Shown: positions 2,389 to 13,267 of the stretch, in pieces
Layout of the letters: each line of letters opens with the position of its first letter
How positions within the stretch are numbered: position 1 is the first letter of the stretch
Source: Candidatus Woesearchaeota archaeon
GTDB lineage: Archaea > Nanobdellota > Nanobdellia > SCGC-AAA011-G17 > UBA489
Direction: 5' to 3'
Length of the DNA: 64,000 nucleotides
Assembly (NCBI GenBank): GCA_964622835.1
Contig: CAZUSA010000001.1
Location: 50,831 to 114,830 of the forward strand
Notes under the pieces: model-generated
The model's database searches: none
What the model was told of the DNA's origin: nothing
The model's input: the letters and a program-made list of their open reading frames with translations, nothing else
Translations under genes and position numbers: made by a program

Positions 2389-3131
2389 AACTTATTTCGT
2401 GGAATGTTAATGGTATTCGTGCTGTCTTAAAGAAGGGGTTTCTGGATTTTATAAAAAAGGAAAATCCTGATGTGTTATGTATTCAAGAAACAAAGGCACA
2501 TCCTGATCAAGTGGATATGGTGTTAGACAAGTATGAACATCATTTTTGGAATAGTGCTGAAAAGAAGGGATATTCTGGTACTGCTGTCTTTAGTAAAGTA
2601 AAACCCATTCAAGTAACGTATGGTGATGGTCCGATGAATGATACAGAAGGTCGTGTTATTACTGTTGAATTTAAAGAATTTATTGTAGTCAATGTATACA
2701 CACCGAATGCAAAGCCTGATTTATCTCGTTTAAAATATCGTCAAGAGTGGGATAAAATATTCTTAAAATATTTAAAAGATTTAGAGAAGAAGAAGCCTGT
2801 TGTTCTTTGCGGTGATTTGAATGTTGCTCATAAGGCAATTGATTTGGCACGTCCTACGGCAAATACTACAAGTCCGGGTTTTACTCCTGAAGAACGAAAG
2901 GGTATGGATAATTATGTTAAGGCTGGTTTTATTGATACATTTCGTGAGTTTCATAAAGAAGGTGAACATTATTCATGGTGGACGTATCGGTTTGGTGCAC
3001 GTGAACGGAATGTTGGATGGCGTATTGATTATTTCTTAACATCCACTATATTAAAGAAGAAACTAAAGAAAGCGTTTATCCTTCCTAAAGTGTTAGGCAG
3101 TGATCATTGTCCTGTTGGTATTGAATTATAA
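2385..3131 (+). CDS. xth: Exodeoxyribonuclease III / AP endonuclease (EEP family)
   Basis: N-terminus MKLISWNVNGIRAV...VLCIQETK and C-terminal SDHCPV are classic ExoIII/Ape signatures. Confidence 0.85.
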   Translation: MKLISWNVNGIRAVLKKGFLDFIKKENPDVLCIQETKAHPDQVDMVLDKYEHHFWNSAEKKGYSGTAVFSKVKPIQVTYGDGPMNDTEGRVITVEFKEFIVVNVYTPNAKPDLSRLKYRQEWDKIFLKYLKDLEKKKPVVLCGDLNVAHKAIDLARPTANTTSPGFTPEERKGMDNYVKAGFIDTFREFHKEGEHYSWWTYRFGARERNVGWRIDYFLTSTILKKKLKKAFILPKVLGSDHCPVGIEL

Positions 3132-3773
3132 TTATTTTTTCTTTGTCACACCTTGTTGTGGACATATCTTGTTAAGAAAACATGTTGAACATATGGGTGT
3201 TGGTGCTTTACATAGTGCTCGTCCATGATCGACAAGGACATGGTTAACAAACCACCAATGTTTTTTTTCTAGTTTCTGTAATAAGTCTTGTTCTACTTTA
3301 TCTGGATTGGTGTGATGTGTCCATCCAAGTCTATAGGCAATACGTTTCACGTGTGTATCCACGGCTATACCTTCTACTTTTCCGTAGGCTTTACTTAAGA
3401 CAATGTTTGCTGTTTTTCGTGCGACACCATGTAGACTGATTAATTCTTTCATGGTATCAGGTACATTGTTATTGAATTCATCAACAATCAATGCACCTGT
3501 TTTCTTGATGTTTTTTGCTTTGTTATGATAAAACCCTGTTGATTTAATATATCGTTCAAGTTCTTTGATGTCTGTTGTTGCGTAGTCTTTTGCTGTTTTG
3601 TATCGTTTGAACAATGCTGGTGTTACTGTGTTGACTCTTTTGTCTGTACACTGTGCCGATAAGATCGTTGCAACAAGCATTTGCAGTGGATTTTTGTAAT
3701 GTAAAGAAGGCTGCTTTGCAGGATAGTGTTTATCTAACAAGTCTATTGTTTTCTTTAATGGCGCTGGTTTCAT
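3132..3773 (-). CDS. nth: Endonuclease III (HhH-GPD DNA glycosylase with 4Fe-4S cluster loop)
   Basis: HhH motif LISLHGVARKTANIVL, catalytic VDTHV, C-terminal CKAPTPICSTCFLNKIC (C-x6-C-x2-C-x5-C). Confidence 0.85.
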   Translation of the reverse strand: MKPAPLKKTIDLLDKHYPAKQPSLHYKNPLQMLVATILSAQCTDKRVNTVTPALFKRYKTAKDYATTDIKELERYIKSTGFYHNKAKNIKKTGALIVDEFNNNVPDTMKELISLHGVARKTANIVLSKAYGKVEGIAVDTHVKRIAYRLGWTHHTNPDKVEQDLLQKLEKKHWWFVNHVLVDHGRALCKAPTPICSTCFLNKICPQQGVTKKK

Positions 3774-3808
3774 AGATTGAACACTGTTCGTCTTGTTGAT
3801 AAGTGTTA

Positions 3809-4489
3809 CTAGTTATTACTAGCTATACCAAAAGGAAGTATCCCTTGGGAACGCTCAAAAGAAAGATCAGGTATTTCTCTAGAATATTGTTCTCTAAAAA
3901 TTCGAGCAACTTCTTTAGCAAGTGCTGTAGCTTTTTTTTCTGGAGAATCATGTTTTCTTGATTGGAAGGGTAGTCTCGCTAATGCATCAAGATCACAATC
4001 ATGAGTTTTATGATGGTAATCATATTCACGTCCTGAAACAAATCTGTGTGGTTGTGTGGCAATAGCAACACTCAAATCAGTAATGACATCATCATCAATT
4101 GCTTCAAGACGTTCACGGAAATGTTCTCCCTTATGAGGGTTTAATTGGTGATAGCGATGAACTACGGCGTCAGACAAGTCACTATCTCGTTCTCGACAAA
4201 AAGCTGTAGATTTATTAACGACAGCAAAACCTACACGGGCTACTTGGGAAAAGAATTCGTATCTATTTTCTGATGTAAGTTGGCCAAAAGGTACTCTCCC
4301 TTGTGCGCGAGCAATGCGTAATCCAACTTCGATAGCTTCTGTTTCTTTAAAATCTAAAAATCCATAAAGACCAGCAAGAGGTGTTTCAACAAGACCATCA
4401 TAAAGAGGTTCAAGAACCTTAGTATCACCGCCACCAGTGGCCATAACAAGATCAATGGTTGGTTTAGGTCGTTTAATTGTTGGCTGCAT
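3809..4489 (-). CDS. Hypothetical protein (226 aa)
   Basis: Long ORF. N-terminal VMATGGGDTKVLEP glycine-rich motif and a His/Asp-rich C-terminal half (YDYHHKTHDCDLD). No confident family assignment. Confidence 0.4.
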   Translation of the reverse strand: MQPTIKRPKPTIDLVMATGGGDTKVLEPLYDGLVETPLAGLYGFLDFKETEAIEVGLRIARAQGRVPFGQLTSENRYEFFSQVARVGFAVVNKSTAFCRERDSDLSDAVVHRYHQLNPHKGEHFRERLEAIDDDVITDLSVAIATQPHRFVSGREYDYHHKTHDCDLDALARLPFQSRKHDSPEKKATALAKEVARIFREQYSREIPDLSFERSQGILPFGIASNN

Positions 4490-4566
4490 ACGTCAGGTAC
4501 TGTATAACTATATTTAAATCTTTCTATTAATTGTAACTAAGGAGTAGTGGAAATATAATAATATAT

Positions 4567-5037
4567 CTAATCCCAACGAACGTTAACAACTGCTCGAAGT
4601 GCATCCAATTTATTATCGGGATCCTTAAAGGAAAAATAAGGAAACGTATGGGCTTGTCCATTTACTACTCTTTCTTTCAAATGAGACAGATCATACACAG
4701 CAAATGCCATATCTTCTCCCCTATCAAGATAATCATCTAAGCCATGGTCAGCATTATGATAAATACCAACAAGGCCAGGATTTTGGGGATGATCAACGGC
4801 ACAACAGTCCATATCATTTCTTCTTGAGAACTCTTCACGATGGAAGGTACCTGTTGTTAAAACAAGAGGTATTAGTTCAGCCTTAAAAGCACTATATCCG
4901 AATTGAGGACCAAACAAGCCACGTGGAGTGAGTTTCTCTCTAAGAATATCTTGTCGTGTAACAGCATAGCCATCAGCTTTGTTAAAATCAATGGCAAATG
5001 GGCGTATTCTTGGCATTGTATTGAGTATTATCTGCAT
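4567..5037 (-). CDS. Hypothetical protein (156 aa)
   Basis: ORF only. His/Asp-rich segment (HNADHGLDDYLD). No assignment. Confidence 0.35.
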   Translation of the reverse strand: MQIILNTMPRIRPFAIDFNKADGYAVTRQDILREKLTPRGLFGPQFGYSAFKAELIPLVLTTGTFHREEFSRRNDMDCCAVDHPQNPGLVGIYHNADHGLDDYLDRGEDMAFAVYDLSHLKERVVNGQAHTFPYFSFKDPDNKLDALRAVVNVRWD

Positions 5038-5106
5038 CTACAATCACCAAACCCCTTTATAAAACCATCTATTTATCGTAACTGAATAGTAGTATAAAAT
5101 AGAAGA

Positions 5107-5475
5107 TCATGGACGAAATGATGGCGGCATAAGTTCCCATTTGCTCCTAGAAGCACGATAGTTCACTTGCACTCGTTCTGAAAGACCATCTTCAGGTGGA
5201 ACATATCGTAATAATTGTACATGAAGATCGTCAGCAAGAGGTACACGACCACCCCATCGTTCATGAAGTGTAAGCATTCCCGCATTTTCATGGAGTGTTC
5301 TTTCTAAAGGATAATCCCCTCCAACACGCAATAAACAAGACGGTGGCCCTTCATCACTTGTAGGAGAAATACTAGCAACATTAGCAATAACAAGTTGTTT
5401 TGTAGTCAAATGTCTAAAGGTTACCTGGTCTCCAGGAACATACATTTTCCAAATACCTATTCTGTTGCTTGCCAT
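5107..5475 (-). CDS. Hypothetical protein (122 aa), possibly a beta-barrel (MOSC/PK-like) domain
   Basis: ORF only. Arg/Pro-rich composition unlike neighbouring genes. Confidence 0.3.
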   Translation of the reverse strand: MASNRIGIWKMYVPGDQVTFRHLTTKQLVIANVASISPTSDEGPPSCLLRVGGDYPLERTLHENAGMLTLHERWGGRVPLADDLHVQLLRYVPPEDGLSERVQVNYRASRSKWELMPPSFRP

Positions 5476-5519: not shown

Positions 5520-6266
5520 TCATTGAAAACGTGATAACGCTTCTTCTTCCATAAAGTGTAATGCACCGGGAATAATGAAACATTGCGGATTTGTTTGTAA
5601 GGTAACAGCATTTGCAGCACCAACATGTATTTCTTGTTTTCCACTACCAAGACCACCACACACAATAACTTCTGTATCAGGTTTTAATCCACAACGAATG
5701 AAGTAATCTAATCCATCTCGTGCAGTCATGAAGGTAATAGTTCCATTGATATTTTTTAGATCTAATAATACTAACGTGTGCAAACCAATCTCTTTATTTT
5801 TAATCATAAAATCATAGGTACTCGTAACATCAGTGTTTTCTTCAGGAACAGTTACTGTTCTTCCAAATTTATACAAGCTTAATCCTGTACTACCCACTGT
5901 TGTTAAGATACTTGCATTGTCTATGACTGTTGTTTGCACATCATGTTTGTTCGCCCGCGTTAACAAATCAACGTGTGTCGTAGCACCTAATGGACTACCA
6001 ACAATAAGTAAAGCAATATTTTTGTTTTGTGCTGGTGTAATCAGTTCTTCATCAGCTTGTGTTTCTAAAAAGTCACGATCAACAGGAGTAATAGTAACCC
6101 CATATGCTTGTTCTAAAGCAGCATGATCATAGTCTACTAATTGACTGGTGTAGGCTTCTAAGTACACTTTATCACATTTCTTAAGGCAATTTAAGCCTTG
6201 TAGAGTAATGTCTTGGGGTGTCCCTAGTCCTATGCCGATGAGGTATAACATTCCAAAAGGCTTCAA
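5520..6266 (-). CDS. dph5: Diphthine synthase (class III SAM-dependent tetrapyrrole-type methylase)
   Basis: N-terminus MLYLIGIGLGTPQDITLQGL... matches the diphthine synthase/DphB family. Length 248 aa. Confidence 0.8.
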   Translation of the reverse strand: MKPFGMLYLIGIGLGTPQDITLQGLNCLKKCDKVYLEAYTSQLVDYDHAALEQAYGVTITPVDRDFLETQADEELITPAQNKNIALLIVGSPLGATTHVDLLTRANKHDVQTTVIDNASILTTVGSTGLSLYKFGRTVTVPEENTDVTSTYDFMIKNKEIGLHTLVLLDLKNINGTITFMTARDGLDYFIRCGLKPDTEVIVCGGLGSGKQEIHVGAANAVTLQTNPQCFIIPGALHFMEEEALSRFQ

Positions 6267-6276
6267 AAAGTGTTAT

Positions 6277-7773
6277 TTAAACGTGTCGATACGTTGTTCG
6301 TGTACTTTTGACAGTACCAACAACACTGCGTAACATATGTCCTGTTACTTCAAGATCATACCATTGGTGTAATGGTAGTCGTTCTTTTACACCAACAATT
6401 AAGGGATAACTACCCATTTGTCGTCCAAACGTGTGATTCCCATCGTGAACTTCCATGTAGACATTTTTCATAACGGTTCCAAGAGGTACTAATCGTTTCA
6501 ATAAAGGTACATCTATGGTTTTCCGTATGGTGTTTCGCCATTGCCAATAGCGTGCTTTATTTTTTCGTAAGAATTTTCTTCCTGTTGCTTCCATTGCTGT
6601 TCCTGGTAACGGCGTCACTTGTCGTATGTTTATACGTCGTAGTAAAAGATTCTCATCAACAATTTTGTTAAGGTATTCTAGGTTGAGTTCTCCTGTTTTT
6701 TTTGATTCTCCTTTTAATCCAAAGACAATGTTAATACCTGGTAATAAATAGTGCATACCATTAGGTCCTCGTTTATTGCCAAATTCATTGATCATACGTA
6801 TGGCTTTTAATGCAATTGCTGGTGATGTGTTTAATGTATTTTGTTTGACAACGTCCATGTCAAAGCTTTCTACGCCAAAGGCTGCAACGTTTCCTTCTGT
6901 ACAATGTTTAACAACGAGTTTTGTTCGTTCTTCATTGACCATGGAGGGTATGACATTATCAATGTGTAATGTGTGTAAGCCTAAACTACTCTGCCGCCCA
7001 ATAGGCTTCAATAGTTGTTCTATGGCTTTGGGATCGCCACCGTTGTAACTGAAGAAGCATGCTTGTTTGCCTAATCGTATGTGACGTTGGTTTAATGTAA
7101 CAAACGCTTTGATTTCTTTATGAATATCAGTGTGTTTTCTCCATGAAACACGTGCTTTCAATGGTTCTGTACAGAAACTACATTTGCCCATGGCACATCC
7201 ACGTCCTGTTTCTATTTCGATCATGGCTGGCCAAGGTATTTGTTTGACAATGTCTACTCCTTGTAAGGCAAAGGGTTCAAGATCACCGTACTCGGTAAAC
7301 ACTTCAGGTAATTGTTCATCAAATAACGTACTCGTTATACGTTCGGCAGTTCTTCCACCTTCTAATTGTGTTCCTGTACTGACAACAGGCCCGTACAAGA
7401 CTGTTCTCGCTTTAACATGGGGCAAAAATGTCTTTAATTCTTGTATTGTTCCAGGTAATGCACTGAGATATTTTCCTGGTGTTTGTATGCCAACAACACA
7501 GTATAATGTTTTTGTAGAAGCTAATATTTCTTTAATGTTTTCACGCGTTCGATGAGCGATGGCAATATTTGTTTTTTGTTGTTTCTTTTCTTTGTTCTTA
7601 TATTGTAAAAAAAATCGAAGATCATCGATGGTTATGTAATTAACCTTTCCTTTAAGAGAACCTGCAAGATAGCGTGGATGCACACCTACATATGGTGGAA
7701 CACCAAGACCTGCTGGTTCATCCGTGTAACAATCCAAGATGGTATCAGGATAGATCATGCACAGAGCATGCAC
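6277..7773 (-). CDS. Radical SAM-superfamily protein with N-terminal B12-binding-like (Rossmann) domain and non-canonical Cx4Cx2C cluster motif
   Basis: ETGRGCAMGKCSFCTEP (C-x4-C-x2-C). N-terminal PAGLGVPPYVGVHPRYLAGSL resembles the B12-binding radical-SAM N-domain. 498 aa. Confidence 0.65.
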   Translation of the reverse strand: MHALCMIYPDTILDCYTDEPAGLGVPPYVGVHPRYLAGSLKGKVNYITIDDLRFFLQYKNKEKKQQKTNIAIAHRTRENIKEILASTKTLYCVVGIQTPGKYLSALPGTIQELKTFLPHVKARTVLYGPVVSTGTQLEGGRTAERITSTLFDEQLPEVFTEYGDLEPFALQGVDIVKQIPWPAMIEIETGRGCAMGKCSFCTEPLKARVSWRKHTDIHKEIKAFVTLNQRHIRLGKQACFFSYNGGDPKAIEQLLKPIGRQSSLGLHTLHIDNVIPSMVNEERTKLVVKHCTEGNVAAFGVESFDMDVVKQNTLNTSPAIALKAIRMINEFGNKRGPNGMHYLLPGINIVFGLKGESKKTGELNLEYLNKIVDENLLLRRINIRQVTPLPGTAMEATGRKFLRKNKARYWQWRNTIRKTIDVPLLKRLVPLGTVMKNVYMEVHDGNHTFGRQMGSYPLIVGVKERLPLHQWYDLEVTGHMLRSVVGTVKSTRTTYRHV

Positions 7774-8294: not shown

Positions 8295-8708
8295 TTAAAA
8301 GCCTTTAGTATGTTTTGAGGTAATTCGCATAAATCCACCCTTACTTTCACCAATTTTTTTTGCAACAGCAGGAGAAGGTGTTTGTACCAAAAGTAAATGA
8401 AGATCACTTCTTCTACGAGCAGTAGCATCAAGCATTGCACGAGCAAAACCTAATTCACTCCTATGACGTGCATCTGCAGGATCACCATTCATACTACCAA
8501 GTATTGCATCAACCTCTGCAACATCATCAAATATTTGAAATCCATAGGGAAGAAAGGAACCCTTTGTTGGAGAATCCTTTACAGCAGTATAGTGAGCAAG
8601 ATCTACATGCCCTAATGATTCATTCCTACAATTGCCCATGCGTATGTATGTTTGCCAAGTCATAAGACCAAAACAATCAAAAAGTAGGCTTATAAAGGTT
8701 ATGTTCAA
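8295..8708 (-). CDS. Hypothetical protein (137 aa)
   Basis: ORF only. Start uncertain (several in-frame Met). Confidence 0.3.
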   Translation of the reverse strand: MNITFISLLFDCFGLMTWQTYIRMGNCRNESLGHVDLAHYTAVKDSPTKGSFLPYGFQIFDDVAEVDAILGSMNGDPADARHRSELGFARAMLDATARRRSDLHLLLVQTPSPAVAKKIGESKGGFMRITSKHTKGF

Positions 8709-8719
8709 GTAGCTATTCC

Positions 8720-10792
8720 ATGTGTGGTATTATTGGTAGTTTGGAACGAAGCAATCATGAAAAAGAAGCTACAATAGCATTAGCTCGTATTGCGTATCGT
8801 GGTAAAGATGCGCAACAGACGAAGAGTACAACAACAAGTACGTTTGCTCATTGTTTACATGCTATTGTTGGTAATGCACCGCAACCCTTAGTGCATAATG
8901 AATGGATCTTTGGTGCTAATTGTGAAATTTATAATTGGAAGGAACTCAAAGAACAATACAATCTTGCAGGTGATAATGATGCTGAAATACTCTTTAGTTT
9001 GTTACAACTACAAGAAACCCTTACTGAAGATGCTCTTAATGCGTTGTTTAAAGAAATAGATGGTGTCTTTGCTTTTTTCTTGCATAATACTAAAGAAAAC
9101 TACACAATTCTTGCACGTGATAGTTTAGGCATAAAACCCTTATGGTTTGCTAATACAGATGGGTTACTCTTTGCATCGGAACGAAAGGCTATTGCTTCTG
9201 AAACGGTTGAACCTGAAGAGTTGAATCCACGTAAAATTATCAAGTATGATCATAGTACCAAAGAAGTAATGTTGTGGCATCAAACATTTTTTACGATCAC
9301 ACACAATCCATCATATAATAATACAGAAGGAAAGAAAGAACTCGAAACATTACTTACTACTGCAGTAACGAAAAGAATTCCTCAAAAGAAGTTGGGTATT
9401 TTATTTTCTGGTGGATTCGATTCAACAATGCTTGCATGGATGCTAACACAACAAAAGATTCCGTTTACTGCATATATGACGCTTGCTGAAGGCAAAGAGA
9501 ATGAACAAGAAAATGCTGAGCGTATTGCTAAAGAGTTAGATTTCCCGTTAACGATTATTCCTGTTACGGAAGAAAGATTAAAAGCAGCATTACCTACTAT
9601 TATTACAACGATTGAATCTGCTGATCCTATTAAGGTTGAAGTGGGTGCGGTTATGTATTTTGCATTAGAAGAAGCAAAGAAAGACAACATTAAGGTTATT
9701 TTTTCTGGTGTTGGTGCGGATGATTTGTTTATGGGCTATGGTCGTATGCATAATCATCAAAATGGTAGTTTAGATTCCTTATCGAGTTTAAGAAAACTCT
9801 ATGAGAAGGATTTGTATCGTGATGATGTTTTGACGATGGCACAGAGTATTGAATTACGTTTACCTTACTTGGATAAGACATTAGTTCAAGCGTGTTTGAA
9901 CATTCCAAACGAATACAAGACAGGCGAAGTTCCCAAGTCATTACTACGCACTATTGCAATAGAGATGGGAATGCCGGAATCATTAACAACGTTAAAACGT
10001 AATGCCGCTCAGTATAGTAGTGGTCTCGGTCGGTTAGCAAAGAAATTGGTAAAGAAGGAGTACAAAGGAACCTATTATGGTACCATCTTAGGAAGAGCAA
10101 ATAGTAAACTCGGTGTATTATTTTCTTCAGGAAAGGACAGTGTCTACGCCTTACACATCCAACAGCGGTTACAATATGAAACAGCATGTTTGATTACGAT
10201 GGATAGCCACAATAAGGATTCATTTATGTTTCATACGCCAGCGATTGAACGTGCGGAAATACAGGCTGAATCATTAGGTATTCCGTTAATTCTTGAAAAA
10301 ACGCAGGGTGAGGAAGAAAAGGAGCTTGCTGATTTAGAACGGGCAATGCAACGGGCGAAGGATGAGTATAAGATCCAAGGTATTGTTACAGGAGCAATCT
10401 TTTCTAATTATCAACGAACACGTATTGAAGAGTTGTGTGATCAATTAAATCTTAAATGCTATTCTCCGTTGTGGCACATGGATCAACATACTGAGTTAAA
10501 GAACTTACTGAAAGAAGGGTTTAAGATTGTTATGACGAAAGTTGCTGCAGATGGATTAGACAGTTCGTGGTTAAACAAAGTAATGACTGAAGAAACGATT
10601 ACACAGTTACAAGAAGTTGAAAAGAAAGTAGGTATCAATGTTGCTGGTGAGGGTGGAGAGTTTGAAACGTTTGTATTAGATGCTCCGTTATTCAATAATG
10701 TGTTAACGATTACGAAGTCTTCTATTGAGGAAGATACAGATGGTGCGGCAACATTAATCATTGAATCCTTGGAATCAAAAAAGAAAGATTAA
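8720..10792 (+). CDS. Fusion protein: class-II glutamine amidotransferase + asparagine-synthetase-like PP-loop domain + C-terminal Dph6-like diphthine-ammonia ligase domain
   Basis: MCGIIG N-terminal nucleophile with FASERKAI (AsnB GATase). LFSGGFDSTML (AsnB SGGxDS PP-loop). Second PP-loop VLFSSGKDSVYAL plus GEGGEFETFVLDAPLF, typical of the Dph6/MJ0570 ATP-binding family. Confidence 0.75.
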   Translation: MCGIIGSLERSNHEKEATIALARIAYRGKDAQQTKSTTTSTFAHCLHAIVGNAPQPLVHNEWIFGANCEIYNWKELKEQYNLAGDNDAEILFSLLQLQETLTEDALNALFKEIDGVFAFFLHNTKENYTILARDSLGIKPLWFANTDGLLFASERKAIASETVEPEELNPRKIIKYDHSTKEVMLWHQTFFTITHNPSYNNTEGKKELETLLTTAVTKRIPQKKLGILFSGGFDSTMLAWMLTQQKIPFTAYMTLAEGKENEQENAERIAKELDFPLTIIPVTEERLKAALPTIITTIESADPIKVEVGAVMYFALEEAKKDNIKVIFSGVGADDLFMGYGRMHNHQNGSLDSLSSLRKLYEKDLYRDDVLTMAQSIELRLPYLDKTLVQACLNIPNEYKTGEVPKSLLRTIAIEMGMPESLTTLKRNAAQYSSGLGRLAKKLVKKEYKGTYYGTILGRANSKLGVLFSSGKDSVYALHIQQRLQYETACLITMDSHNKDSFMFHTPAIERAEIQAESLGIPLILEKTQGEEEKELADLERAMQRAKDEYKIQGIVTGAIFSNYQRTRIEELCDQLNLKCYSPLWHMDQHTELKNLLKEGFKIVMTKVAADGLDSSWLNKVMTEETITQLQEVEKKVGINVAGEGGEFETFVLDAPLFNNVLTITKSSIEEDTDGAATLIIESLESKKKD

Positions 10793-12397: not shown

Positions 12398-13267
12398 ATG
12401 ATGGTGACAACTAATATGGCTATACAACCCACAGGCAGAACAATAGAAGACGCCTTAAGAAATCTACCAGGCGGAAGAAAAAGAATAGGAGAGATAGTAA
12501 GAGGTATCCAAAATGGTGATCCCACAGCAGTACAAGAATTATACGCAGGATTGTACATTGATGCACAAACAGGTATTGGTAATAGACGTGCATTTGATGA
12601 AAAAATTGGAGAATTAGATAGTCATTCAATTGTTATTTCAGGAGATGTTTTAGGTCTCAAAGCAGCAAACGATAGCCCTGGCGGAACAGCTGCAGGAGAT
12701 CAGTTAATTAGTAGCACAGCAGAAGGTTTACAAGGAAGTCTGCGATTTGCTTCAAATTCTTATGAAGGACCTGATAAACGAACAAGTAAACAAACAGATT
12801 ATTTACAATGGATTGCAGATGATGGTCAAGCCTACAGAGTAGGTGGTGATGAATTTGCAGCAATTCTCCCAGACGTTTTACATCTTGCAATAGGTGGGAC
12901 AATTTTAGAAAGAACACAAAACCGATTTAACAATCCAAATAAACCCCTCAATGCAATTGCACTAAGCGGTGCAGCATATGCCCCAGGAATGGATCCCGAA
13001 GCAGTAAGAGCATTATCTGAAGACGGCATGTATGCAATGAAATATGGGTTATACAATGAAGATCCTAATAAGAGAAGGGATCGCACTGATGCACGTGGCA
13101 TCTTATCTGGTTTCGCATTAGCACACCCTGGTGGAAGATTTCAGTTATTTTTCCCAAAAGGACCAGATGGAGAAAAAAGAGTAGGATCCGCACGAACGCT
13201 TGAAGAAGGATTATTCCACATAACGTTCCCTGATGGACGTACTGAAGAATATCAGCGTAAAGAGTGA
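12398..13267 (+). CDS. Stand-alone GGDEF-domain protein (putative diguanylate cyclase), no sensor domain
   Basis: DAQTGIGNRRAFDEKI (D-x-LTGL-x-NRR-x-F), ISGDVLGLKAANDSPGGTAAGDQLI (substrate/metal-binding region), RVGGDEFAAIL (GGDEF), SEDGMYAMKYG (AD-x-ALY-x-AK region). No RxxD I-site. Confidence 0.7.
   Translation: MMVTTNMAIQPTGRTIEDALRNLPGGRKRIGEIVRGIQNGDPTAVQELYAGLYIDAQTGIGNRRAFDEKIGELDSHSIVISGDVLGLKAANDSPGGTAAGDQLISSTAEGLQGSLRFASNSYEGPDKRTSKQTDYLQWIADDGQAYRVGGDEFAAILPDVLHLAIGGTILERTQNRFNNPNKPLNAIALSGAAYAPGMDPEAVRALSEDGMYAMKYGLYNEDPNKRRDRTDARGILSGFALAHPGGRFQLFFPKGPDGEKRVGSARTLEEGLFHITFPDGRTEEYQRKE

Follow-up and report, generated by a model that had tools for sequence, protein, structure and literature searches.

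The gene examined here lies at positions 8720..10792 (+) of a 64,000-nucleotide stretch of DNA (hereafter the window; contig CAZUSA010000001.1 of assembly GCA_964622835.1, positions 50,831 to 114,830), and judged by its sequence it is best explained as the Dph6 of an uncultured Woesearchaeota-related DPANN archaeon, placed in a monophyletic clade in which Dph6 is fused to a module resembling the asparagine synthetase AsnB. Dph6 is the diphthine-ammonia ligase that yields diphthamide on elongation factor 2 (EF-2). Most archaea and eukaryotes have kept this modification, which safeguards the fidelity of translation and is what diphtheria toxin attacks. The fused protein is somewhat more probably than otherwise (roughly 0.55) a diphthine-ammonia ligase that draws its nitrogen from glutamine by channelling. 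It is a new member of a published fusion class and nothing new in kind.

The gene is a single unbroken open reading frame (ORF) with an ATG start, encoding 690 aa that begin with MCGIIG and ending with a stop codon. Pfam and NCBIfam agree with the original prediction, made from the letters alone, that three modules share this ORF: an N-terminal nucleophile (Ntn) class-II glutamine amidotransferase (GATase) domain (aa 1-190, 8720..9289, +; Pfam and AsnB alignment), an AsnB-derived PP-loop ATP-pyrophosphatase domain (aa 200-445, 9317..10054, +; Pfam, NCBIfam, alignment and Foldseek) and a complete Dph6 domain (aa 463-690, 10106..10789, +), the last two being joined by a 17-aa linker (10055..10105, +). 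Pfam places GATase_7 at aa 52-159 (1.8e-19), with GATase_7 and GATase_6 together spanning aa 30-159, Asn_synthase from aa 207 onwards (2e-38) and Diphthami_syn_2 at aa 463-674 (2.8e-60), and separate searches with aa 1-460 and aa 461-690 gave identical domain matches. The motifs quoted earlier were all found, namely the first PP-loop SGGFDS (aa 230-235, 9407..9424, +), the second PP-loop SSGKDS (aa 469-474, 10124..10141, +) and EGGEFE (aa 644-649, 10649..10666, +). Likewise, the AsnB-like part is shorter than AsnB by about 100 aa, as had been noticed: it ends near aa 445, equivalent to about residue 470 of the 553 in E. coli AsnB, with 85-110 aa missing.

Upstream of the gene, a TATA-like TTATAAA lies about 30 nt 5' of the ATG within a 56-bp divergent intergenic region (8664..8719, +), delimited by the sequence and by the called start of the neighbouring gene at 8663, and its position suggests a leaderless or short-leader mRNA. 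Together with the MCGI start found family-wide, this element would support the ATG at 8720 as the start and the exposure of Cys as the N-terminal nucleophile once Met is removed. The length of the intergenic region depends on the start of the neighbour at 8295..8708 (-): as a mechanical ORF of 137 aa with a TTG start it would leave 11 bp before the ATG of the fusion, and gene calls on identical contigs start it at 8663 (122 aa), giving the 56-bp divergent promoter region.

The fusion recurs widely. The identical 690-aa product is called on contigs of three independent assemblies (ENA, JGI and Logan), and a protein search with it returned 1,109 matches at E<=1e-10, the best 120 of which are nearly all 640-740 aa long and share the same Pfam architecture at 42-62% identity. 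A search for the same fusion in related archaeal genomes, proposed earlier, thus found it in at least 120 full-length homologues, and over the Archaea as a whole their number runs to several hundred. The contigs that carry them reach 1.3 Mb (GCA_028279745.1) and include a complete genome (Nanosalina sp. VS9-1, NZ_CP180230.1), and the linker is conserved among them and confidently modelled. The earlier worry that a frameshift or an assembly join had created the ORF is not borne out, as the three assemblies and the homologues show it intact.

By every feature of sequence and fold, the C-terminal domain is an archaeal Dph6, and its sequence makes a diphthine-ammonia ligase function highly probable. 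The NCBIfam model TIGR03679 (Dph6_archaeal), which with PF01902 and PF28410 represents the Dph6 subgroup of DUF71, scores 261 bits against a cut-off of 197.3 and is covered from position 2 to 216 of 218. The crystallised proteins PF0828 of P. furiosus (4.7e-54) and PH1257 of P. horikoshii (1.6e-51) can be aligned over the whole length of the C-terminal 228 aa, and Foldseek places the modelled domain on the structures of both with template-modelling (TM) scores of 0.95-0.97 (target-normalised) and a root-mean-square deviation (rmsd) of 1.2-1.3 A. The assignment of the C-terminal 230 aa to the Dph6 family therefore stands, and the presence of dph5 in the window is a further point in its favour. 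Within the SxGKDS PP-loop (SSGKDS), S469, G471, K472 and D473 are invariant in 118 sequences, and EGGEFE is invariant among fusion-family sequences. The study of De Crécy-Lagard et al. (2012; Biol Direct 7:32; PMC3541065) gives S44, Y45, E78, Y103, Q104, A149, E183, E186 and E188 (PF0828 numbering) as strictly conserved in Dph6 orthologues; these map to S501, F502, E535, Y564, Q565, A609, E644, E647 and E649 of the 690-aa protein. Across the family all of these are invariant or nearly so apart from F502, a position that is mostly Tyr. The same study distinguishes the DUF71 subgroups by EGG[E/D]xE188 in Dph6 and ENGE[F/Y]H188 in B12 salvage (PMC3541065), and the presence of EGGEFE, matching the Dph6 signature, rules out the B12-salvage (cobamide) subgroup. 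Within the 64-kb window there is no second Dph6 or AsnB homologue, the search for a canonical dph6 having covered the window only, and dph2 and EF-2 were not located within the window.

The first two modules were compared with AsnB by aligning the E. coli sequence to 119 fusion proteins and to all genome loci (numbering with Cys as residue 1). In the GATase, Cys1, Arg30, Asn74, Glu76 and Asp98 are invariant in 118-119 of the 119 fusion proteins (C2, R27, N67, E69 and D87 in the window protein), and these residues mark the domain as an Ntn glutaminase that has retained its nucleophile and its oxyanion residues. Two residues of the glutamine site depart from AsnB. The position of Arg49 (human Arg-48) is occupied by Leu in 119/119, followed by a near-invariant His (L46 and H47); it is never Arg among the genome loci, being Leu in most lineages, and the region aligns as an ungapped 9-mer (AHERLSIVD vs AHCLHAIVG). 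The position of Gly75 is Cys in 116/119 (C68). The roles of these residues in AsnB and in human asparagine synthetase (ASNS), namely of Arg49, Asn74, Gly75, Glu76 and Asp98 together with Cys1, are taken from Zhu et al. (2019; PMC6748925), and the tunnel residues of human ASNS from PMC11615228.

In the AsnB-like synthetase domain, the PP-loop SGGxDS (E. coli 234-239) is invariant in the fusion family, Ser346, Gly347, Arg387, Glu398 and Arg400 are invariant or nearly so (S329, G330, R367, E378 and R380), and the acidic pair at 351/352 is retained. By alignment, SGVGADD (9704..9724, +) corresponds to SGEGSDE of AsnB with Val331 in place of Glu348 (human Glu-364), and DLYRDD (9809..9826, +) provides Asp364 and Arg367 as equivalents of AsnB Asp384 and Arg387, the former position being Asp throughout or Asn in one subclade. 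KRNAAQYSS (9995..10021, +; family consensus RKKxAAQYGS) matches the RQK449EQFSDG motif that holds the adenylate-phosphate Lys, a position at which 94 of the 119 proteins have K and 24 have R (K426-R427). Beside these retained residues, Glu348 is replaced by Leu, Val or Ile in 118/119 and is never Glu across the genome loci, where the position is variable and non-acidic (L/V/I/S/T/M/A/N/F/Q), and Ala388 (the tunnel-lining human Ala-404) is replaced by a nearly invariant Asp that is kept in all groups (D368). TTIRAS of AsnB appears as xKVxV. The NCBIfam equivalogs for asparagine synthetase are both missed (TIGR01536, 231.7 vs a cut-off of 267.1; PRK09431, 209.9 vs 499).

Work by Meyer et al. in Biochemistry in 2010 is said to have found E. 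coli Glu348 to be needed for beta-aspartyl-AMP formation. In human ASNS, the E364A, E364Q and D367A variants are inactive (Zhu et al., 2019; PMC6748925). The absence of Glu348, the inactivity of human E364A/Q and the missed cut-offs together disfavour an asparagine-synthetase role, and they weaken the bifunctional asparagine/diphthamide enzyme that the original prediction had offered as an alternative. Canonical AsnB identity is ruled out by the missed cut-offs and the absence of Glu348 and Arg49. From the pattern of kept and replaced residues we infer that the middle PP-loop domain is no asparagine synthetase, with its acceptor pocket remodelled and its ATP site strictly kept; the site looks reshaped rather than dead.

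An AlphaFold2 model built on a 118-sequence alignment has a mean predicted local distance difference test score (pLDDT) of 94.3 and a predicted TM score (pTM) of 0.92, with no low-confidence segment, and the 17-aa linker is predicted to be helical and ordered (pLDDT ~89-96) and not a floppy tether, so that the three modules are predicted to form a single rigid body. In Foldseek, the first two modules match human ASNS (6GQ3) and E. coli AsnB (1CT9) with TM scores of about 0.8 (target-normalised) and rmsd of 3.1-3.2 A, reflecting the same two-domain Ntn-GATase plus PP-loop fold, and no solved structure with all three modules was found. The next-best matches are beta-lactam synthetase (1JGT) and carbapenam synthetase (1Q15), which are also AsnB-fold enzymes. 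In these, we take the Glu348 position to be replaced and the chemistry changed (Tyr348 in beta-lactam synthetase, Tyr345 in CarA); to our knowledge, they have no working glutaminase (no Cys1) and no fusion to a second PP-loop enzyme.

One genome was scanned for each species, giving 78 loci that were dissected with custom hidden Markov models and a sensitive re-screen for GATase remnants (E<1). The three-module fusion is the commonest form (n=57) and occurs in Woesearchaeota, Nanoarchaeota, Iainarchaeia, Micrarchaeota, Altiarchaeota, Nanohaloarchaea (including a complete Nanosalina genome), Methanosarcinales (Methanolobus, ANME-3), ANME-1/Methanophagales and metagenome-assembled genomes of Halobacteria. 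Five loci encode the AsnB-type PP-loop domain and Dph6 without a GATase remnant at E<1 (L050, L053, L056, L057 and L060), and one, from Methanohalophilus sp. RSK (L054), has half a GATase without Cys1. Additionally, there are three stand-alone AsnB-like genes (L066, L067 and L075; a fourth, L070, is split) and about 12-13 stand-alone Dph6 genes (L069, L071-L080, L082 and L083). In a neighbour-joining tree of the Dph6 domains, calculated without bootstrap, the fused domains form one clade apart from the stand-alone Dph6 of Woesearchaeota and Nanoarchaeota. The stand-alone AsnB-like proteins carry the full residue signature and end with the linker segment of the fused forms, and Dph6 fusions account for about 100 of the 120 proteins most closely related to one of them, pointing to a Dph6-associated AsnB-like subfamily distinct from canonical AsnB. 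These sequences set the AsnB-like module apart as a subfamily of its own that hardly occurs outside fusions with Dph6; no dph6 adjoining the stand-alone AsnB-like genes was seen in the three contigs checked.

Forms in which the GATase is lost or mutated bear on the role of the middle domain. The five GATase-less proteins are scattered inside the fused clade of the neighbour-joining tree, which, in a tree of this kind, points to several independent losses of the GATase. The GATase-pocket mutants make up one Halobacteria/ANME-1 subclade (L044, L045, L049, L051 and L081), in which Asn74 has become Asp or Ser, Asp98 is Ser or Ala in 4/5 and Cys1 is Thr or Tyr in 3/5. Over 95 tracked positions, each at least 95% conserved in 47 three-module proteins, the glutamine pocket has decayed in the GATase-mutated and GATase-less forms, and so have the GATase-facing residues Glu378 (human Glu-414), Arg380 and Asp369 (human Asp-405, partner of the tunnel-gate residue). 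Despite this decay, the middle PP-loop, Gly330/332/339, Tyr340, Arg342, Asp368, Lys400, Lys406 and AAQY stay essentially invariant in the same forms, as do the conserved Dph6 positions with one exception (R566, for which the GATase-mutated clade mostly has Lys). L054, with its half-deleted GATase, likewise retains the AsnB-type PP-loop and the Dph6 site. That the middle ATP site persists indicates that it is selected independently of glutamine hydrolysis, which argues against a purely passive ammonia pipe. The middle domain as a decaying relic is ruled out, its ATP site being essentially invariant in every group, and the invariant Asp368 speaks against calling it inactive. On this evidence two options would be left for it: it acts as an enzyme in its own right, or it belongs to this kind of diphthamide synthetase as an integral, ATP-dependent part.

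The original prediction regarded the architecture as undescribed; it was in fact published in 2012. De Crécy-Lagard et al. (PMC3541065) describe a COG0367/AsnB module (GAT-II plus the Asn_Synthase_B_C PP-loop) fused to the N-terminus of DUF71, with Methanohalophilus mahii, Methanosalsum zhilinae and 'Ca. Nanosalinarum' as the examples, and propose that NH3 from the hydrolysis of glutamine is provided to the DUF71 domain, the AsnB domain or both. The module order and the proposed role of glutamine are the same as here, and a reviewer's question printed there, whether the ammonia goes to the one PP-loop domain or to the other, was left open (PMC3541065). The window protein groups with the fusions of Methanolobus, Methanohalophilus and Nanohaloarchaea in one fused-Dph6 clade, and the Leu49/His50/Cys75/non-Glu348 signature is common to them. 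The window protein differs in coming from a Woesearchaeota-like DPANN lineage that the available text of PMC3541065 does not discuss, and it is 37-42% identical to the fetched fusions of Methanosarcinales and Nanohaloarchaea; the same text makes no mention of the residue departures from AsnB or of repeated GATase loss. Database names also point to prior recognition, in that NCBI and JGI already name homologues from Candidatus Woesearchaeota or Nanoarchaeota archaea, where a name is given, usually 'diphthine--ammonia ligase'. Automatic names in the family alternate between this, 'asparagine synthase (glutamine-hydrolysing)' and 'ATP-binding protein'.

Two other systems frame the comparison. Stand-alone Dph6 proteins (PF0828, PDB 3RJZ/3RK0/3RK1; PH1257, PDB 2D13) share the PP-loop, EGGExE, the end-to-end alignment and the fold with the fused domain but have no ammonia-generating module. 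Yeast Dph6 (YLR143W) resembles the fusion in joining a Dph6 catalytic domain to a module proposed to make ammonia, which in yeast consists of C-terminal RidA/YjgF-UK114 domains; the yeast enzyme needs these fused RidA-like domains, suggested to be ammonia generators, and is active in vitro (PMC3585130).

In the mechanism favoured here, the GATase would hydrolyse glutamine at Cys1, and the ammonia would pass through a putative AsnB-type tunnel to diphthine amidation. The Dph6 domain, by homology, would adenylate the diphthine carboxylate on EF-2 and amidate it to diphthamide, and the middle domain is probably an ATP-dependent catalytic or gating part of the same reaction rather than a passive pipe or a separate enzyme. 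The use of glutamine-derived ammonia for diphthine amidation, as first suggested from the window, is a reasonable proposal and agrees with the published one (PMC3541065). Several points weigh against this mechanism. The stand-alone Dph6 proteins of related archaea evidently manage without an AsnB-like module, and the loss of the GATase in five lineages and its mutation in another clade, with the middle ATP site kept, are hard to square with a role in carrying ammonia alone. As the position of Arg49, which in AsnB binds the alpha-carboxylate of glutamine, is never Arg here, the nitrogen donor or its binding mode may differ. The invariant Asp368 could functionally replace Glu348, in which case aspartate activity may be possible. 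Additionally, the literature that could be searched yielded no AsnB-Dph6 fusion that has been tested biochemically.

The best surviving alternative, possible but clearly less probable than channelling, is that two independent enzymes share one chain, with the GATase and AsnB-like domains forming a glutamine-dependent amidotransferase of their own for asparagine or another small carboxylate, its ammonia going to its own PP-loop site alone, and the Dph6 domain, merely co-translated, using free ammonia. This possibility was raised in the reviewer comments of PMC3541065, and it draws on the strong conservation of the middle ATP site and of the AsnB substrate residues (the Asp351/Glu352 equivalents, Asp384, Arg387 and Lys449), which holds independently of the GATase, as for a real catalytic site. 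Asp368 could stand in for the missing Glu348, and stand-alone GATase plus PP-loop versions occur with no adjacent Dph6. However, human ASNS needs a carboxylate at position 348 for aspartate activation, and the position is variable and non-acidic here; the curated AsnB cut-offs are missed, the subfamily is overwhelmingly Dph6-fused, and the fusion is predicted to be a rigid single body with a short, ordered linker. The retention of the fusion by genome-reduced DPANN archaea also speaks against it, DPANN archaea being without most amino-acid biosynthesis.

A second alternative, which we regard as rather improbable, holds that the AsnB-derived domain and not the GATase is essential to Dph6, performing or gating an ATP-dependent step on EF-2, with the GATase as an optional ammonia booster. 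Its pocket may have been shaped to accept the trimethylammonio-carboxylate of diphthine; another possibility is that the binding of ATP there drives EF-2 to dock or to leave. Such a role would fit the at least five independent GATase losses and the one mutated clade, all of which keep SGGxDS, Gly330/332, Tyr340, Arg342, Lys400, Lys406 and AAQY, and also the replacement of Glu348 by mostly hydrophobic residues and of Ala388 by Asp with the acidic 351/352 kept, since a pocket of this kind could suit a quaternary ammonium. Moreover, the middle-site motif at aa 429-434 lies only about 35 residues from the Dph6 PP-loop at aa 469-474 in a rigid model. Against it, the proposal is entirely inferential and diphthine amidation is not known to involve a second ATP site elsewhere; in most archaea a stand-alone Dph6 is enough, the yeast enzyme is active in vitro (PMC3585130), and the Dph6 domain keeps its own catalytic residues, so a second adenylating site seems redundant.

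That an assembly or frameshift error joined an asnB-like gene to a separate dph6 gene has practically no probability and is ruled out, since, although split forms occur (L087 with one in-frame stop; L016 and L070 as adjacent ORFs), the identical ORF is unbroken in three independent assemblies, the many full-length homologues include some on contigs of up to 1.3 Mb and one in a complete genome, and the linker is conserved and confidently modelled. The L087 locus (3109-5193 of GCA_900089805.1) is an ortholog cut by one in-frame stop into a GATase part (3109-3630) and the rest (3634-5193), and the stop may reflect a sequencing error, a pseudogene, an ongoing fission or read-through. Its called protein, P0024 (62% identical), was considered as a close GATase-less relative and rejected, the GATase ORF lying directly upstream, past the one in-frame stop.

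On the minus strand, divergent from the fusion, lies a packed run of genes encoding a 122-137-aa protein, a 175-aa membrane protein, a 498-aa radical-SAM-like protein, the diphthine synthase Dph5 and a 122-aa protein. The dph5 gene (5520..6266, -) is a genuine diphthine synthase gene (TIGR00522, 205.9 bits vs a cut-off of 114.3) and lies 2,454 bp from the fusion ATG on the opposite strand, in agreement with the earlier estimate of some 2.5 kb. The radical-SAM-like gene directly upstream of it (6277..7773, -), described earlier as a non-canonical radical-SAM gene, has a CX4CX2C motif (CAMGKCSFC, Cys193) in keeping with that name, but its Radical_SAM match is weak (23.4 bits, below the gathering score), as is its similarity to the B12-binding/radical-SAM model TIGR04013 (40.8 bits); its product has no sequence match in the PDB, and without a PF01866 match it is ruled out as Dph2.

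L006 (61% identity) and L087 (62%), which are the closest relatives, show the order dph5, radical-SAM-like gene, membrane-protein gene and fusion as well, and the radical-SAM-like gene is also the divergent neighbour of the fusion in L019. Across the flanks of 83 non-self loci, dph5 was found in 3 and a Dph2 fragment in 4 (7/83 in total), where 1-Mb genomes holding three dph genes each would be expected to give about 3.6 such flanks (Poisson P ~0.07, non-independent relatives being counted), and on the 1.3-Mb contig the neighbours of the fusion are unrelated translation genes. The loose EF-2 modification neighbourhood proposed in the original prediction is not supported for the family at large: the cluster is kept only in L006 and L087, and it is at most a local feature of the subclade to which the window belongs.

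Other observations concern genes near the fusion or in the loci of its relatives. Directly downstream and convergent lies a gene for a small 2Fe-2S ferredoxin (PF00111; 10972..11295, -), in a position kept only in same-organism assemblies, and nearby is one for a YbaK/ProX-type aminoacyl-tRNA editing-domain protein (PF04073; 11734..12309, -). A 289-aa protein encoded at 12398..13267 (+) has a GGDEF domain (PF00990, 34.9 bits vs a gathering score of 23.8) with a literal GGDEF motif, and a GGDEF gene is also called at the syntenic site in L087 (10526-11329); diguanylate-cyclase-like proteins are unusual in Archaea. In L085 (10341-11554 of GCA_964385055.1), a 222-aa Dph2-family fragment (PF01866; DPANN typically have such a split Dph1/2) is followed after 5 bp by a 179-aa DnaJ-domain protein, the pair lying 3 kb downstream of a stand-alone AsnB-like gene of the fusion subfamily. 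The J-domain gene beside dph2 may recall eukaryotic Dph4, or the arrangement may be a coincidence; we know of no Dph4 in Archaea.

The broader interest of the family lies in the ammonia source of Dph6 in vivo, which is inferred from fusion partners only, these being RidA-like in eukaryotes and AsnB-like in some archaea. If glutamine-derived ammonia is used for diphthine amidation, the organism would be independent of free ammonium. The family analysis sharpens the question left from 2012, in that the AsnB-like partner appears to be no asparagine synthetase and its ATP site outlasts the glutaminase in evolution. It is a tentative and, at present, unlikely extension of these results that throughout the clade the AsnB-derived PP-loop domain has been retooled, with Glu348 replaced by a non-acidic, mostly hydrophobic residue, Ala388 by Asp and Arg49 by Leu, and has become an obligatory second ATP site of the diphthamide synthetase that is kept, its active site intact, after glutaminase loss. 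If this is true, the middle domain, as neither asparagine synthetase nor passive ammonia channel, would do something new in EF-2 modification, such as an ATP-gated hand-over of ammonia or a direct action on diphthine.

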